From Nitrosopumilus sp. (GTDB lineage Archaea; Thermoproteota; Nitrososphaeria; Nitrososphaerales; Nitrosopumilaceae), in contig OZ250186.1 of assembly GCA_965238275.1 (NCBI GenBank), positions 1,440,001 to 1,504,000 on the forward strand: a stretch of DNA of 64,000 nt, written 5' to 3'. The position numbers and the translations under genes are program-made. A model generated the notes under the pieces. It searched no databases and was not told the origin of the DNA. It saw only the letters and a program-made list of their open reading frames with translations. This document shows, piece after piece, positions 11,580-23,273 of this stretch (the first letter of the stretch is position 1; each line of letters begins with the position of its first letter).

Positions 11580-12604
11580 CTATGCATAGATTATGATGTA
11601 TCTCAGTTCCTCGGCACACTCCATCCTGTTGAGAACCCCCAGGCTCCAACCGATTGCCTTGAACAGCCCGAACTTCCTCTGGTTTGCTTTCTTCCGGAAC
11701 CTGCAGTAAACTGGTGGTGTTCGGTCTCCTCTGCCCCATAGATCCCCTCTGTCATTCATGCCCCGCCTCTTGTAGATGCCGGGCTCGAAGATCTTTGCAG
11801 CCCTTGTCCTGAAATGTTTCCCCCGCCCTTTGCATACCTTCTCTGCTTGATGTTGGGCAGCAGCAGCAGCCTGCTGACGGCGTCTTTTCTCTGCTTGATG
11901 TTGGGCACCATGCCCATCCAGAACAGCTCCTCGACGTTGTAGTCGGCGTCATACCCGCGGTCTGCATCAAAGACGCTCCCCGAAAAGTCATACCCGCGGC
12001 GCCTGATCTCGGCCAGCATGACGGGCAGCATCGTGACGTCGTTGACGTTACCCGGCGTGGTAAACGTGGCCAGCACAATCTGTAGTCCCAGGATGGCCGT
12101 TATGTGGTATTTCCAGTAGGTTTTTTGACGCATCTCGACGAAGTCACGCTCCTTTTTGTAGGGTTTTTCGATGTTTTCGTACCTGGTAGTCTCCACCCCA
12201 CTGCTGTCTGCGCCCAGCGGGCCCGTCGCGCCGGCCGCCTCGGCGATGCAGCGGCGGGCAGTCTCGGCCAGTATCAGGTCCATCCAGTCCGGCGGAATGG
12301 TCTGGAGGTGCCTGACCATCGTGGTGTGGTCCGGAACCGGCTCGTCGTCCCAGGGAGTCCGCATGTCGCGCAGGTCTGATTCGATCCTGCGGAAGGTGTT
12401 GTTGTAGGCCATCATCAGCAGGCAGGCAAAATCCATCTTGTCCTTGGAGTGGATCCTGGGACGGCCCCTGTTGCCGTTTTCGGGGCGCGGGCAGGGGTTC
12501 TCTCGAATCATTTCAATCAGCGTCCTCCTCAGGTGGGATGCCTCGACTTCGTTTGCAAGTTCGTAGTACTGCCAGTATCTTTCCCGTCGGTTGTGTTTGA
12601 TCAT
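11580..12604 (-). pseudogene. IS5/IS4-like DDE transposase with frameshifted C-terminus
   Basis: VPDHTT, GADSSG, DADRGYD; duplicated CTCTGCTTGATGTTGGGCA near 11840/11890; C-terminal ..YKRRGM/EGIYGAEE/YCRFRKK..KAIGWSL spread over shifted frames. Confidence 0.8.
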
Positions 12605-12690
12605 TACCGCGTGCGGGCGATCATGGGATCATTGAATGTATCGGACGAGATTAGCAGCCAAAGGATTTACGCACCAACCTCCGCCCGGGC

Positions 12691-14137
12691 TAGTTTGTTG
12701 CACAACCTCGTCGAACCCATGGACGTGGGGAAGTACTGCCAGTACTGCCACCCTTCCTACGCCCTCATGATTGCCTCCCGTGCCACGTCCAGCAGTTCAT
12801 TGTATATCCTGACCTTGATTCCGATCTCGTTGATTATGTTCTTCATGGTTCTGGCCATCACAAAGTCGCCAAACCGCCTCTTGAACGCGGAGAATACTAT
12901 CTCTACAAGCCACCGGCGGCCATAGCCTACCTTCCGTTTCCATTCCTTTTGGTTCTTGGAGCGCTCGTCGGCGTCCAGTGCGGAAAGTTCCTTGGGCCCG
13001 TGCTTGCTGCCGCACAGCTGATCCTGCGCAGCCAAGGCGCGCGCCCGGCCCTTGCCATTTGATCTGGAATTGGAATTCTGGCGTACCTTGATCAGCGAGT
13101 AGATCCCGAGATTCTTGCACAGCGAGTGGATCTTCCGGGTGTCATATCCTCCGTCACCCAAGACGGCTATGACGGATTCTTCCAGATTCCCAGCCGTGCT
13201 TGCGGCATTGATTGCCTGTTCGATCACGTCTGACTCCCTCTGGGGTTGTCGATCCCCTTGGCCCTTCCTGTCAGATGACGGGGACTGTGCCGGGTCCTTT
13301 TTGTCAGCCGACCCTCCCCCCTGCCGGGCGTTCCTGCAGAGCCTGCCGGCGTCGATTCCGAGGCACTCCAGCGAGTCCTCCAGGAGGCCCTCAAACTGCG
13401 GAGAATCTCCCGTGCGTTCGTCAGTCACCTTGAATGCCACGATCTTTTGCGTGTCGTGCTCGATCATGACGCTCAGCCTGATCCAGCCCCGCTTTACCTT
13501 GTGCTTGTGGCGCATCCAGTCGCTGCGCGTGGAAGGCGTCAGTCCCGTGCCGTCAGGGATCAGCCGCATGATGCTCCCCTTGCTCCTTACCTCCACGCAT
13601 CCCTCCGCGCTTGTGACATTCATCTTGTTGATTCGCCTGCACAGCGTGGTGTGATCCGGGGCATCCCCCTCCCCCAGGGCACTTATCGCCAATCCTTCGC
13701 AGGGCCGGTACGCGAGCTTGAGCTTGTACCTCACCCCGGCGATTGCCATTATGGTCAACTCGGAGTAGTCAAAAGGGCGCCCGTTTTTCTTCTCCCGTGT
13801 TCATCCTGGCAAGATCCTTGGCAGAATCCGGATCGGGGGCCAGGAACAGCAACATTCCCTGTTCTATGTACCTCGCGTCGTTCTGGGAATGGGTTATGTG
13901 GAGCCTGGATTTCTTCCCGCCTGTTTCCTCTACATCTGCCACGTACATGTGGGGGTAGGGTGATCTTTGTGCCTTTTGGGCAAAAAAATTGACGGTTTTG
14001 GCGGATTTTTGTCAACCTGCAGTGGCCACATGCACATACACTATTCTTGTCTCCCGTATGCCCGGCAGATTCTGCCTGCAGGAATGCCCAAGGCCACAGG
14101 AGTGGGGTGATTCTAGGCAGGGTTGTGCAACAAACTA
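12691..14137 (-). mobile_element. IS5-family element with 17-bp perfect TIRs and 8-bp target duplication
   Basis: TAGTTTGTTGCACAACC at 12691 and its reverse complement ending 14137; GCCCGGGC at 12683-12690 and 14138-14145. Confidence 0.9.
12757..13948 (-). pseudogene. IS5-family transposase with +1 frameshift near 13790
   Basis: 59-aa N-terminal frame (ATG 13948, stop 13769) continues in shifted frame GRPFDYS..PDHTTLCRR..PDGTG..GDGGYD..YGRRWLVEIVFSAFK. Confidence 0.8.
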
Positions 14138-14189
14138 GCCCGGGCATAAAACTTAAATTCACATTATTGCGGATTCAACGAGGGTTAAA

Positions 14190-15353
14190 ATTACTATAAA
14201 ACGATCAAACCACGCACAAAAGTTTGGAAAGCTGGTTTTTGACGACGGAACCGTTCTTGACGGTAATGGGTTTGGCAGCTCCACGACAGGGTTTGGCGAG
14301 ATTGTATTCAATACCGGGATGGTCGGGTATACCGAGGCGCTGACTGATCCCTCGTATAACGGCCAGATCCTGACACTCACGTACCCCCTGATTGGAAACT
14401 ATGGCGTTCCGGATCCCGGCGCAGTTGATGCTGACGGAATCCCCAAATTCTTCGAGTCTGACAGGATACAGGTCCGGGGGCTGGTGGTCCACGAGCTGTC
14501 CCTTGTGGCAAGCCACTGGAACCTCTTCATGACGCTTGACCAATGGATGCACAAGGAGGGAATCCCGGGAATATCCGGAATAGACACGCGCCAGCTTACC
14601 AAGAAGCTCAGAACCGGCGGCGTGATGATGGCAGCGCTTGCAGTCTCTGACTCTGAGATAGACGTCAAGCAGGTGCAAGAGGGCCTTGCATCCGCTGCGC
14701 ACTACGACTCTGAGCAGTTCATGGATGCAGTATCCACAGGACAGGCAAAAACCTACGGGGATGAGTCCGAGTGCGTGGTGGTGATTGACACTGGCGCAAA
14801 GAATGCAATACTGAGAAACATCCGCAGCATAGGATACCGCGCAGTACTGCTCCCGTGGAACACCCCGTACGAGACGGTAATGTCGTACCGGCCGCGGGGC
14901 GTGGTGCTGAGCAGCGGCCCGGGGGATCCGCAGAGGTGTCCGGAGACCATCGACACCGTAAGGCAGCTGATGCGCAACGACGTTCCGACCCTTGGAATAT
15001 GCCTGGGTGCGCAGATAATGGGAATTGCAGGAAACGCCGATACGTACAAGCTAAAGTACGGGCACCGGGGACAGAACAAGCCGTGCCTCAACCTGGAGAA
15101 CAACCAGGTGTATGTCACAAGCCAGAACCATGGCTACGGCATAACGCCGGAATCCCTTGAGGGTTCCGAGTTTGACTTGTGGTTTACAAACGCAGACGAC
15201 AAGACAGTCGAGGGGATAAGACACAAGACGCGCAGCTGCATTGCTGTGCAGTTCCATCCCGAGGCCGCGCCAGGCCCGCACGACTGCAAATTCGTCTTTG
15301 AAGAGCTCAAAGGCCTTATGGAGAAGGAGGAGGGGTGTCCTGCCAAAGAATGA
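14190..15353 (+). CDS. carA: Carbamoyl-phosphate synthase small subunit; start non-canonical and uncertain
   Basis: GKLVFDDGTVLDG..GEIVFNTGMVGY, SSGPGDP, GICLGAQ, SQNHGY, QFHPEA; homology begins well upstream of ATG 14319. Confidence 0.92.
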   Translation: MTIKRSNHAQKFGKLVFDDGTVLDGNGFGSSTTGFGEIVFNTGMVGYTEALTDPSYNGQILTLTYPLIGNYGVPDPGAVDADGIPKFFESDRIQVRGLVVHELSLVASHWNLFMTLDQWMHKEGIPGISGIDTRQLTKKLRTGGVMMAALAVSDSEIDVKQVQEGLASAAHYDSEQFMDAVSTGQAKTYGDESECVVVIDTGAKNAILRNIRSIGYRAVLLPWNTPYETVMSYRPRGVVLSSGPGDPQRCPETIDTVRQLMRNDVPTLGICLGAQIMGIAGNADTYKLKYGHRGQNKPCLNLENNQVYVTSQNHGYGITPESLEGSEFDLWFTNADDKTVEGIRHKTRSCIAVQFHPEAAPGPHDCKFVFEELKGLMEKEEGCPAKE

Positions 15354-18300
15354 GTCGCTAAAGAAAATTCTTGTACTGGGCAGTGGGGCAATAAAAATCG
15401 GAGAAGCCGGCGAGAGTCGCTAAAACGACCGCCAGTTTGACTACTCCGGTAGCCAGTGCCTCAAGGCAATACGCGAGGACGGACTGAAGAGTGTGCTTAT
15501 CAACCCAAACATAGCCACCATTCAGACTGACACCAGGTTTGCAGACCAGGTGTACCTTCTTCCCGTGACGCCCGAGTACGTGGAATCGATCATAGAAAAG
15601 GAGAGGCCAGACGGCATAATGCTGGCATACGGTGGGCAGACTGCGCTGAACTGCGGCGTAAGGATCTCCGAATCCGGCATACTGCAAAAGTACGGCGTCG
15701 GCGTCCTTGGAACCCAGATAGAGGGGATTCAAAGGACCGAGGACCGGCAGCTCTTCAAGGATGCGATGACCGGGATAGGGGTGCCTGTGCTCAAGAGCAG
15801 GACGGTTACAAACTTTGCAGACGCCAAGAATGCCGCAGAGGAGCTGTCCTACCCCGTGATTATTCGGGTGGCCTACACCCTGGGTGGCAGGGGCGGGGGA
15901 GTGGCGCACAACGAGATCGAGCTGTACGAGATAGTCGAGCGCGGCATCAAGGCAAGCATGGTGGGCCAGGTGCTCATAGAGGAGTACATCGGGGACTGGA
16001 AGCAGATAGAGTACGAGGTGATGCAGGACTATGACGGAAACAACATAGTCGTCTGCAACATGGAAAACGTCCTCTCCATGAGGGTGCACACGGGGGACAA
16101 CATAGTGGTTGCCCCGTCCCAGACGATCGACAACCACGAGTACCACATGCTGCGCTCGGCTGCCCTGCGCGCCACAAAGCATGTCCGGATCGTGGGGGAG
16201 TGCAACATACAGTATGCCCTGGCGCCCGACTCGGACCGGTATGCGGCAATCGAGATAAACCCCCGCCTTTCGCGCTCCTCTGCCCTTGCAAGCAAGGCCA
16301 CAGGATACCCCCTTGCATACATGTCTGCCAAGATAGGCCTTGGCTACAACCTGTCCGAACTGGTCAACCGAATCACAAAGAGCACCACTGCCTGTTTTGA
16401 GCCGTCCCTTGACTACGTGGTGTGCAAGCATCCGCGGTGGGACTTTTCAAAGTTCGAGCTTGCCAACAGGAGGCTGGGCCCCTCCATGAAGTCCGTAGGC
16501 GAGGTGATGGCAGTCGGCCGAACATTTGAGGAGTCGCTGCAAAAGTCAATCCGCATGCTTGACATCGGGCGCGACGGGCTGGTCCTGAACCGGGAGAACG
16601 GCAGGACGTACGACGAGGAGGAGATAGAGGAGAAGCTCTCACACCATGACGACTGCATACTGTACCACGTGGCCGTTGCGCTGAGGATGGGCATACCGGT
16701 GGACAGAATCTACCACCTGTCTGCAATAGATCCGTGGTTCATTGAAAAGATAAGGAACATCGTGGCCGTGGAGGATGCCCTCAGGTCCCGGGAGCTTGAT
16801 GCGGGCCTTCTCTGGAATGCAAAGAGGATGGGGTTTGCCGACAAGCAGATTGCGCGTGCAAAGGACAACTGCACGCAGGATTCGGTGCGCGCCCTGCGCA
16901 AAAAGCTTGGCGTGCTGCCGTCAGTAAAGCAGATAGACACGCTTGCAGCAGAGTGGCCTGCCGTAACCAACTACCTGTACATGACGTACGGGGGGGACTC
17001 TTCTGACATCAGGGTGTCGCCTGACGAGAAGGGAATCGTCGTAGTCGGCGCCGGGCCGTACCGGATAGGAAGCAGCGTGGAGTTTGACTGGGGGACAGTC
17101 AACATGGTCTGGGGGCTCCAGGAGAACGGGGAGAAGAACGTCTCTGTGGTCAACTGCAATCCCGAGACGGTGTCGACTGACTATGACATATGCACCAGGC
17201 TGTACTTTGAGGAGCTGACCCAGGAGAGGATCCTGGACATTACCGAGTTTGAGAACCCAAAGGGGGTCATCACGTGCGTCGGGGGGCAGACTGCCAACAA
17301 CCTCACCCTCGGGCTCGCCGAACACGGCGTGCCAATCCTGGGAACAAGCGCGCGCGACGTGGACATGGCAGAGAACCGCTCAAGGTTCAGCGGGGAGCTT
17401 GACAAGCTTCACATACAGCAGCCGCGGTGGCAGGAGTTCCTGAGCCTGAAGGAGGCAAGATCCTTTGCGCAGGACGTGGGGTTCCCCGTGATAGTCCGTC
17501 CCTCGTACGTCCTGTCGGGGGCGGCCATGAAGGTGGTCTGGTCGCAGGGCGAGCTGAAGAGGTACGTCAAGGAGGCCACCGACGTCTCGCCGGATCACCC
17601 CGTGGTGATATCCAAGTTCATGCTCGACTCCCTCGAGGTGGACGTTGACGGGGTCTGCGACGGGAGCCGCGTGGTGATAGGCGCGCTAGTCGAGCACATC
17701 GACAGTGCCGGGGTGCACTCCGGCGATGCGATGATGTGCATCCCGCCGTGGCGCCTGAGCAACAAGATAATCGAGACGATAAACGAGTATGCAAAAAAGA
17801 TAGCCCTGACCTTCAACGTGCGCGGCCCGTTCAACCTGCAGTTTCTCATACACGACGACCACGTGTACGTGATCGAGCTTAACATCCGGGCCTCGCGCTC
17901 CATGCCGTTTGTCTCAAAGCTTGTCCGGACCAACCTGATATCCCTTGCATCCAAGGCGATCCTGGGCATGCCGCTGCCTGCGATACCTGAAAACAAGTGG
18001 CAGAGGATAAGCAACTTTGGAATCAAGGTCCCGCAGTTCTCCTTCATGCAGCTTGACGGGGCAGACATCGCGCTGGGAGTGGAGATGCAGTCGACGGGGG
18101 AGGCGGCATGCTTTGGAAACAGCTTTTATGACGCCCTCTCCAAGGGGCTCACCTCGGTGGGCTACAACCTGCCCAAAAGCGGCGCGGCCCTGGTGACTGT
18201 GGGCGGCGCGCAAAACAAGAAGGCCCTCGTCGCAACCGTTGCCAAGCTCAGGGATCTGGGGTTTAGAATACTGGCGACAGAGCACACTGCAGAGTTCCTC

Positions 18301-18606
18301 CAGGAGAGGATCGGAGACGTGGAGACTGTACACAAGATATCAGAGCCTGACAGGAAGCCCAACATCGCGGATCTTCTCTACGAGAGGACCATAGACTTTA
18401 TCATAAACATCCCTAGCACCTCCACGCTTGAAAAGTACGTCGGGATGCTTGAAGACGAGTACCAGATTAGGAGAAAGTCACTGGAGCTTGGCATTCCGGT
18501 GCTGACTACGATCGAGCTTGCAGAGTCGTTTGTAAACACGCTGGAGTGGCTCAAGACAAACCAGACCACAAGGGAGCCCATCGAGCCCTACGACAAGCTC
18601 GACTAG
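15340..18606 (+). CDS. carB: Carbamoyl-phosphate synthase large subunit, two exons (15340-15414, 15436-18606), about 1081 aa if spliced
   Basis: CTG start after GGAGGAGGGG; KKILVLGSGAIKIGEAGE | FDYSGSQCLKA; two ATP-grasp domains and MGS domain all intact. Confidence 0.92.
15415..15435 (+). other. Candidate bulge-helix-bulge/loop mRNA intron (21 nt, AGTCGCTAAAACGACCGCCAG)
   Basis: GGCG/CGCC 4-bp helix, AGA and AGT bulges, GTCG/CGAC hairpin with TAA in loop; cuts after 2nd bulge nt give GGC GAG TTT GAC. Confidence 0.75.
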
Positions 18607-22154: not shown

Positions 22155-23273
22155 CTAATTTACCAGATAGCCCACAAGTCGGTTGCCCATCTCTTTTTCA
22201 AGGATTATCGTTATCGCCGCCTTTAGATCCTCTGGTGACTCAAAGTACCTGCCTGCCAGTCGTCTCTTGAGATCCCTCCAGACGTTTTCAATCTGGTTAA
22301 GCTGCGGCGTGCGGGGCGGGAGAAATTCCAGCTTTACGTCACCGCCGGTGCCGGCCACGTATTCTCTGACCTTGTGCGACTTGTGGTACGACGCGTTGTC
22401 CAGAACCATGTAGAATTTCGGGTGGTTCCTGCGGACATCCTCGAGGAACTCCTTGAACGTCTCAGAGTTTGCAGAATCTGCCATGCGGACGTAGAGGGTA
22501 TCTGTGCCCATGATGCCAAGCAGGCTGACGGCCTTTTTCGAGAACCCGGTCTGGATCTCGTCGCGTCCTCCCGTGGGCCTCCACCCGTAGCCCGGTTCCT
22601 GCGACATGCCGACTGCGGCCTCGTCTTCGACGAACACGGCGTACCCTTCATTGGCCAGATCCCTTGCCCTCTTGCCGGCCGCTGCCTTGAACTCTTCTTG
22701 CTCGCTTTTGGAGGCTGACTTGGGCGGAACCGGCCTTGCCTTTCGGTAGGAGAACCCGATCCTTTTGAGCATCCTTCGCAGCGTGCGCTCCTTGCAGTCC
22801 ATTCCAAACTTCCGCCGGATCATCTCCAGCACCAAGTTGAGCTGCCAGGAGCCGGACTCGAATCCGTACTTTTTTGGCTCGTTGTTCAGCCACGCTCGAA
22901 TTGTCTTGGAAAAAGACTTGGGCATCTTGCTTTTCCTGCCTCTGCGCATTCGGTTGAACCTGGCCCTCAATCCCCGCTCCTGCATCCGCACCAGCCAGTC
23001 GCGCACGGTGGAATACGGCATGACAAGCTTCCTGCAGATCTCCCTGATGCTGTGGCTCTGCTTTCTCATGATGCACGCAAGCATCCTGAGCTTGGCCAGA
23101 ACGTTCTTCTCTTTTGCGCACATCCGCACCAGCTTCTTTTCGCTCACGTTCGGCATGAACAGGGATCCGGCCTCGAGCCTCTTTTGTCCGGATGCCAGTC
23201 CGGTTGCGGGAACGGTCCTTGCGCGACGGCCGGGGTCGGCGACGCCTTGTTTTTCTTCGGCAACAGTCATCAT
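22155..23273 (-). mobile_element. IS630-family transposase, intact ORF; ends not resolved
   Basis: HTH plus winged HTH (GFSYRKARP), EDEA, VLDNASYH, LPPRTPQLNQIENVWRDLK. Confidence 0.9.

Follow-up and report, generated by a model that had tools for sequence, protein, structure and literature searches.

A candidate bulge-helix-bulge-family intron in the carB pre-mRNA of Nitrosopumilus and related ammonia-oxidising archaea

The stretch of DNA analysed here (hereafter, the window) comprises 64,000 nucleotides (nt), positions 1,440,001 to 1,504,000 of contig OZ250186.1 (assembly GCA_965238275.1), from Nitrosopumilus sp. The genome, a single contig of 2,216,668 bases that is 99.92% complete, encodes archaeal AmoA, and the organism is therefore an ammonia-oxidising archaeon. 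According to an NCBIfam profile search, carA is followed by carB on the plus strand of the window; carB, the single copy in the genome, is interrupted near its 5' end by 21 nt that are very probably an intron removed from the pre-mRNA. The main features of the locus are as follows.

14190..15353, plus strand: carA, glutamine amidotransferase small subunit; first ATG at 14319, with homology and open frame reaching further upstream
15340..15414, plus strand: carB exon 1, 25 codons, (L/M)PKNESLKKILVLGSGAIKIGEAGE; 14-nt overlap with the end of carA
15415..15435, plus strand: putative intron, 21 nt, in-frame TAA at 15421-15423; from the sequence and same-site relatives, and missing en bloc from one near-identical contig
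15436..18606, plus strand: carB exon 2, FDYSG... to the stop codon, 1056 codons; from the CarB profile match and the open frame

The carA match (TIGR01368, 381.5 bits) covers profile positions 32-360 of 361 from ATG 14319, and the carB match (TIGR01369, 1359.6 bits), which begins at window position 15436, covers positions 25-1051 of 1052; the CarB models are matched from position 25/26 through to their ends. Frame 1 across the insert reads ...ILVLGSGAIKIGEAGE SR*NDRQ FDYSGSQCLK... (in a longer upstream read, ...KKILVLGSGAIKIGEAGE-SR*NDRQ-FDYSGSQCLK...). That is, the 21 nt AGTCGCTAAAACGACCGCCAG split the motif between GGC GAG and TTT GAC, and the motif is unbroken in intronless relatives. Since AG both precedes the insert and ends it, the borders are ambiguous by two positions with the product unchanged: deleting 15413-15433, 15414-34 or 15415-35 gives the identical result. 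Downstream of the insert the carB frame is open to 18606, and a mechanical list of open reading frames (ORFs) begins the long carB frame at GTG 15493. An earlier note on this DNA had described a TAA-containing split of GEAGE-FDYSG in carB, which is indeed found at these coordinates, and had called all of carA intact; the latter holds for the reading frame but not for the listed ORF, the ATG of which corresponds to profile position 32.

Inserts at the same site are common in relatives. A first draw of 41 genomes provided 30 loci, with a same-boundary insert in 10 (the window's own counted) and none in 20, and in the closest relative the insert is identical to that of the window. An order-wide search of 401 genomes, in which the N-terminus of an intronless relative was the query, gave a match in 349, and 82 of the best 150 of 352 rows were interrupted (i.e., a stop inside, or a match beginning only at residue 19-25). 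One genome flagged as unpublished enters these tallies only and underlies none of the claims made here. The 78 interrupted rows new to the set were fetched, and the insert lies exactly between GEAGE and FDYSG in every one of them; together with the 10 of the first draw, these make up the 88 genomes (69 distinct sequences) used below. Insert lengths are 18 nt (2 genomes), 20 nt (13), 21 nt (50), 22 nt (18), 26 nt (1) and 30 nt (4). Because 32 of the 88 lengths are not a multiple of three and would shift the frame, and some inserts hold no stop codon at all, yet the downstream frames are still open for about 1050-1080 codons, the inserts must, judging from these frames, be removed and not read through. 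Predicted removal restores GEAGE-FDYSG in frame for all six length classes, in 88/88 genomes.

In terms of distribution, the order-wide rows listed place inserts in the families here labelled f1 (many genera), f2, f3, f4 and part of f15, and no interrupted carB was found in f5, f7, f9, f10, f14, f16, f18 or f19 among these matches (best 150 of 352). A phylum-wide draw (301 genomes, 206 with a match) had all 106 listed non-f1 rows uninterrupted among the best 150 of 211 rows. A scan of 185,579 species genomes, based on a degenerate pattern designed to miss the common GGC type, returned 17 matches, 11 of which are chance hits outside carB and six of which are carB genes bearing an insert of 17-39 nt at this site (three titled Nitrososphaerales or Nitrosopumilales, three titled only 'uncultured archaeon'). 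The latter three loci (L124, L128 and L131) have inserts of 17, 39 and 20 nt, respectively, and the genomes of the first two measure 0.9 and 1.3 Mb with a single EndA-domain match each. AmoA was not found in these three genomes, the completeness of which is not established, and the intron family may reach beyond ammonia oxidisers. Within the ammonia-oxidiser order the intron appears to be old and vertically inherited, with loss in some lineages. A quick tree built from the N-terminal segments of 108 CarB sequences (132 columns) leaves 55 of its 103 inner branches open, with no more than a lower limit of two changes forced by the well-supported branches; the rows are biased, 78 of the 108 having been chosen for being interrupted.

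As RNA, the 81 nt around the insert fold with a minimum free energy of -31.5 kcal/mol (z = -3.9), and 0 of 200 shuffles are equally stable. The parts of this fold, with the central helix denoted H and the hairpin within the insert denoted h', are the following.

15397..15403, plus strand: outer exon-exon helix, 5' strand AUCGGAG; from the fold, covariation and RNAalifold, with fixed synonymous sites in intron-bearers
15409..15412, plus strand: central helix H of 4 base pairs (bp), 5' exonic strand GGCG; 95.7% of cells paired, with GGUG/CACC or CACU in two lineages
15413..15415, plus strand: 5' 3-nt bulge AGA, predicted cut AG^A between 15414 and 15415; from the fold, with AAA in 51/88 and AGA in 37/88 genomes
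15416..15429, plus strand: inner hairpin h', GUCG, loop CUAAAA, CGAC; double compensatory changes in 4/5 pairs
15430..15433, plus strand: helix H, 3' intronic strand CGCC; from the fold, the register in 88 genomes and covariation
15434..15436, plus strand: 3' splice-site AGU, relaxed loop or bulge, predicted cut AG^U between 15435 and 15436; no canonical flanking helix
15444..15450, plus strand: outer exon-exon helix, 3' strand CUCCGGU; from the fold, covariation, RNAalifold and synonymous sites

This is the fold that the earlier note had drawn, including its relaxed, bulge-helix-loop (BHL) type 3' side, and its cut rule (AG^A and AG^T, joining G-E-F-D) gives the intact motif in all 88 genomes. 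The strict hBHBh' motif, with two 3-nt bulges on opposite strands of a 4-bp helix, each bulge flanked by a further helix, is not formed: the 5' bulge, H and h' are all canonical, and the 3' site has no adjacent outer helix. The features of the relaxed motif (HBh'/BHL), on the other hand, are all found, with a register that fits 88/88 genomes, H and h' paired in 95.7% and 88.4% of cells, respectively, and double compensatory changes. An exact 11-nt direct repeat, GAGTCGCTAAA, occurs at 15352-15362 (carB codons 5-8) and at 15414-15424 (5' splice site plus intron). As a clue to the origin of the intron or to an alternative pairing it was discarded, given that the full 11 nt occur in just two of the 88 genomes, the window's own and the closest relative, with six or fewer in most; it is treated here as a coincidence with the E-S-L-K codons.

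H was placed at exon positions -6 to -3 and intron positions -6 to -3, the register demanded by a cut 2 nt 3' of each H strand, and this register holds in 88/88 irrespective of insert length. The H types are GGCG/CGUC (32 genomes), GGCG/CGCC (23), GGCG/CGCU (19), GGCG/CGCA (12), GGUG/CACC (1) and GGUG/CACU (1), and the three nucleotides that follow H on its 3' side are AAU in 72, AGU in 15 and AUU in one. Among the 69 distinct sequences, the structure above is paired in 92.0% of cells vs. 24-46% after the 3' partners have been slid along by 1-3 columns, and its covariation score is 0.200 vs. 0.120 in shuffles (0 of 500 reach it; the shuffle control ignores relatedness). Double changes were observed in four of the five hairpin pairs and one of the four H pairs, and the hairpin itself takes forms as different as GUCG/CGAC, GCCG/CGGC, GUCA/UGAC, GUCUC/GAGAC, GCUGU/ACAGC, GCCAG/CUGGC, GUUAG/CUAAC and GCUA/UAGC. 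Because of the slid controls and this diversity of hairpin sequences, structural constraint on the insert is the only reasonable reading of the alignment.

The exons flanking the insert are constrained as well. Variation in exon 1 is almost confined to third codon positions across the 69 sequences, and exon 1 is therefore translated, in a frame that joins exon 2 only after the insert is removed. In 46 intron-bearers with a GC content at third codon positions (GC3) below 0.40, the neighbouring carB codons serving as the background, the codons of the helices are nearly fixed as ATC (46/46), GGA (44/46), GGC (45/46), GAC (44/46), TAC (46/46) and TCC (43/46), whereas 20 intronless genomes mostly use ATT, GGT, GAT, TAT and TCT at the corresponding codons. 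Relatedness could explain part of this contrast. C-ending codons in AT-rich genomes are, in any case, expected if G-C pairing in H and the outer helix is under selection.

The genome encodes candidate enzymes for such splicing. Two genes carry an EndA catalytic-type domain. The product of the first, 191 amino acids long, aligns over its full length to the crenarchaeal chains 3p1z_B, 2cv8_A, 3ajv_B and 2zyz_B (E 1e-41 to 5e-36), where 3p1z and 3ajv are presumably the Aeropyrum enzyme, and keeps in the alignment the Tyr...His...Lys pattern, which we take to be the EndA catalytic triad. The second, a paralogue of 200 amino acids, is divergent and without the His at the corresponding place; the two genes correspond to the two-subunit arrangement. 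There is one gene for the RtcB ligase, and ARAGORN flags 8 of 45 tRNA genes as intron-bearing. By gene content, then, the host has RtcB and an EndA for which broad specificity is predicted from the enzyme type, which is linked to cleavage specificity in parts of PMC5829648.

Taken together, we consider it very likely, with some room for doubt, that the insert at 15415-15435 is an intron of the archaeal endonuclease type, belonging to the bulge-helix-bulge (BHB) family in a relaxed BHL/HBh'-like form, in the carB pre-mRNA. That carB must be spliced at the RNA level is almost certain, and we infer EndA and RtcB as the enzymes as well as the exact cut sites. Under this model, exon 1 and the intron would pair as the 4-bp helix GGCG/CGCC; the 5' strand of H would be followed by the 3-nt bulge and the intronic hairpin, and its 3' strand by a loose stretch closed by the distal exon-exon helix. 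A two-subunit, (alpha-beta)2-type EndA would then cut 2 nt 3' of each H strand, at AG^A and AG^U, and RtcB would ligate the exons to GGC GAG-UUU GAC, i.e., ...GEAGEFDYSG..., for a full-length CarB with the peptide IGEAGEFDYSGSQCLK across the joined exons. On the unspliced mRNA, translation would halt at the TAA after 27 codons, and CarB synthesis would therefore depend on the tRNA-splicing machinery.

Four public runs (X1, X2, X3 and X6) were compared with window positions 15000-16200 for evidence of the joined form. In X2, a contig of 238 nt spans 15218-15476 with 99.6% identity to the window; it differs by one other letter and leaves out 21 nt at 15413, and is thus the exact predicted joined form. 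In X3, a metatranscriptome, one contig stops at 15414 and the next starts at 15436, breaks that fit two alternative paths between these positions and are a weak hint only. The joined form of carB exists in at least one data set, the RNA nature of which is uncertain.

Several points weigh against our interpretation. RNAalifold independently finds the hairpin, three H pairs and the outer helix, but places the first G of H opposite the third base of the Phe codon, so that H shrinks to 3 bp and the 3' site falls in a bulge of 5 nt rather than in a canonical, helix-flanked one of 3 nt. In addition, 12 of the 69 sequences have a G-A mismatch at the outermost pair of H. The 3' site would be relaxed (BHL type) under either pairing, and cleavage would rely on an enzyme of relaxed specificity, because this site lies outside a canonical flanked 3-nt bulge. 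With respect to the reads, the X2 evidence is a single contig of depth 2.64 from a library whose type is only a guess ('RNA?'), the X3 breaks come from a single study, and in X1, a metatranscriptome, a 980-nt contig of a ~94%-identical relative keeps the insert, meaning that unspliced RNA or DNA carry-over also exists.

X1 contains, in addition, a 58-nt contig of depth 43.5 (11.1 for the neighbouring contig) that covers carB exon 1 from 15385 to 15416, up to the 5' splice site (±2 nt), and continues with 26 nt encoding the carA motif AAPGPYDCK. These are identical at 22 of 26 positions to 15264-15289, with the mismatches at third codon positions, and the joined part of carA is ~15261-15289. 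The contig is a back-join of ~153 nt in a relative, and may reflect an RNA circle, a tandem duplication carried by an uncultured strain, or a chimera formed in the library. By eye, no conserved pairing or BHB motif that would explain the carA back-join was seen.

Alternatively, the insert might be an artefact of sequencing or assembly, or a DNA polymorphism between strains; some or all cells would then lack the 21 nt in their genome, and the X2 contig, which comes from a library of unknown type and lacks the 21 nt, would represent an intronless DNA allele. We consider this highly improbable. The insert is found in 88 independently assembled genomes, identical in the closest relative; a 2979-nt contig of X6 (kind unknown, possibly the source sample; depth 25.7) covers 15000-16200 with 0 differences and includes all 21 nt; and at 99.6% identity, an allele without the intron would imply a precise deletion in the very recent past.

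It is scarcely credible, in our view, that carB is a pseudogene, or encodes an N-terminally truncated protein from GTG 15493, with the insert as a mutational scar, even though an in-frame TAA lies in the insert, the ORF list begins the long frame at that GTG, and exon 1 has no canonical start (its Met1-equivalent is CTG). A scar would neither covary nor freeze synonymous exon sites, whereas 88 genomes keep the insert with conserved structure and the coding constraint on exon 1 persists; further, carB is single copy in an almost complete genome, and a start at 15493 would remove the conserved FDYSG region. Lastly, a ribosome bypassing the insert without RNA splicing, by a hop as in T4 gene 60 or by frameshifting, is hardly tenable: a stop-containing hairpin does stand immediately 3' of a conserved codon, and the 18-30 nt gap superficially resembles a bypass cassette, but the take-off GAR has no matched landing codon (the last insert triplet is CAG, CAA, TAA, AAA, AAG or AAT), the insert conforms in 88/88 genomes to the geometry of EndA substrates, in which both strands of a 4-bp helix have their cut 2 nt to the 3' side, and one contig physically lacks the 21 nt.

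The proposal of the earlier note that carB is a spliced mRNA and not a pseudogene is thus supported by the covariation, the frame-shifting lengths, the EndA and RtcB genes and the X2 contig. The checks it had named came out as follows: same-site inserts with covarying helices exist in relatives, with both helices covarying; another intact carB is absent from the genome; and the 21 nt are all present in X6, an independent read set that may come from the source sample. As to reads spanning the junction, an X2 contig is without exactly these 21 nt, in a run whose RNA nature is guessed, and the X1 contig keeps the insert.

A genome-wide scan for further ORF-restoring introns of the BHL type, narrow and not exhaustive, reduced 235,510 raw motifs to 16,477 that are ORF-compatible, 430 with a coding score on both sides and 20 strict clusters, with carB recovered. 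Nine other clusters were inspected and turned out to be ordinary gene boundaries, a start codon lying only a few codons away from the 'junction' in each. No LAGLIDADG, HNH or GIY-YIG homing endonuclease domain was found by Pfam in the 14 ORFs at 8.6-24.8 kb of the window, nor within ~6 kb of carAB; the same scan identified DDE transposases, a metallophosphoesterase, an ATP-synthase F subunit, an alcohol dehydrogenase and a Na/H exchanger. Three DDE-type transposase ORFs (two PF01609, one PF13358) flank carAB on the minus strand, at 11759-13758 and 22158-23273, with no evident connection to the intron.

The start codons of both genes are also unusual. For carA, the homologous N-terminal 30-odd codons upstream of ATG 14319 are without ATG, GTG or TTG, and the same is true for the 50 open codons upstream of the conserved FNTGM motif (window 14157-14318) in most same-genus loci examined, with incidental ATG, GTG or TTG codons in a few. 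The carA leader is strongly conserved in same-genus loci, with a TATA-like AAAACTTAAATT followed by ACGAGGGTCACA-ATT..., and a Shine-Dalgarno (SD)-like GAGGG (14180-84) precedes the conserved ATT at 14190; in a locus of another family, an ATG stands three codons beyond the ATT-equivalent position. The start of carA is probably this non-canonical ATT. An Rfam search of window 14000-15700 at an E-value threshold of 1 gave 0 matches. For carB, the codon homologous to Met1 is CTG (15340-42), with an SD-like GGAGG ~9 nt upstream; exon 1 contains no ATG, GTG or TTG and is overlapped by the carA stop (TGA 15351-53). The Met1-equivalent codon is CTG in 49, ATG in 14, CTA in 8, TTG in 5 and others in 12 of the 88 intron-bearing genomes, and TTG in 10 and ATG in 8 of the intronless relatives. 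These patterns suggest that carB may be translated through CUG initiation or coupled re-initiation.

How does the carB intron compare to known archaeal introns? Pre-mRNAs of cbf5 in Crenarchaeota are reported to contain BHB introns, work that is attributed to Watanabe (2002) and Yoshinari (2006). The host gene there encodes an RNA-modification enzyme, as opposed to a core metabolic enzyme for carB, and the hosts are Crenarchaeota as opposed to mesophilic ammonia oxidisers; further, the 3' site in carB is relaxed, unlike those of the cbf5 introns, and carB splicing is so far a prediction. In the parts of the literature drawn upon here, cbf5 is treated as the protein-coding case, with 0 cbf5 introns given for Cenarchaeum and Nitrosopumilus (Yokobori 2009, PMC2738675), and the corresponding portion of a 2025 structural paper cites only cbf5 papers for protein-coding introns (PMC12397907). 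A further likeness is offered by the non-canonical, relaxed HBh'/hBH/BHL tRNA introns of TACK archaea that are cut by (alpha-beta)2 or epsilon2 EndA, as described in sections of PMC5829648: a central helix, one good 3-nt bulge, an intronic hairpin, the other site in a loop, mini-intron size, and an enzyme type that occurs in Thaumarchaeota. Unlike these introns, the carB substrate is an mRNA without a tRNA body, and codons make up both the outer helix and the exonic strand of H, so that synonymous sites come under constraint. Among the full texts that could be searched, no paper connects a BHB intron, or splicing in ammonia oxidisers, to carB or to carbamoyl-phosphate synthase. The mechanism itself is known; novelty lies in the host gene, in the lineage and in how widely the intron is conserved.

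More speculatively, and as an idea to which we give only a small chance, the GEAGE-FDYSG boundary of carB might be a recurrent landing site, across distant archaea, of a perhaps once mobile mini-intron, kept for hundreds of millions of years in ammonia oxidisers as a checkpoint that ties arginine and pyrimidine precursor synthesis to EndA/RtcB; the cut 5' exon might even be ligated with the carA 3' end into a stable circle of ~150 nt. If so, the 58-nt back-join contig of X1 would hint at a circle of the carA 3' end and exon 1.

In the literature searched, cbf5 is the only protein-coding gene with an archaeal BHB intron, and carB would be the second host. With a second host gene, the splicing of mRNA by the tRNA machinery would no longer be a peculiarity of one gene in hyperthermophiles, and the carB intron is conserved across globally abundant ammonia-oxidising archaea, a clade that includes cultured strains. 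The frozen synonymous sites show, in a clean natural case, how the choice of codons can be constrained by RNA structure. Finally, gene callers will list carB as truncated, split or pseudogenised, leading to false arginine and pyrimidine auxotrophy in the metabolic reconstructions of many genomes.

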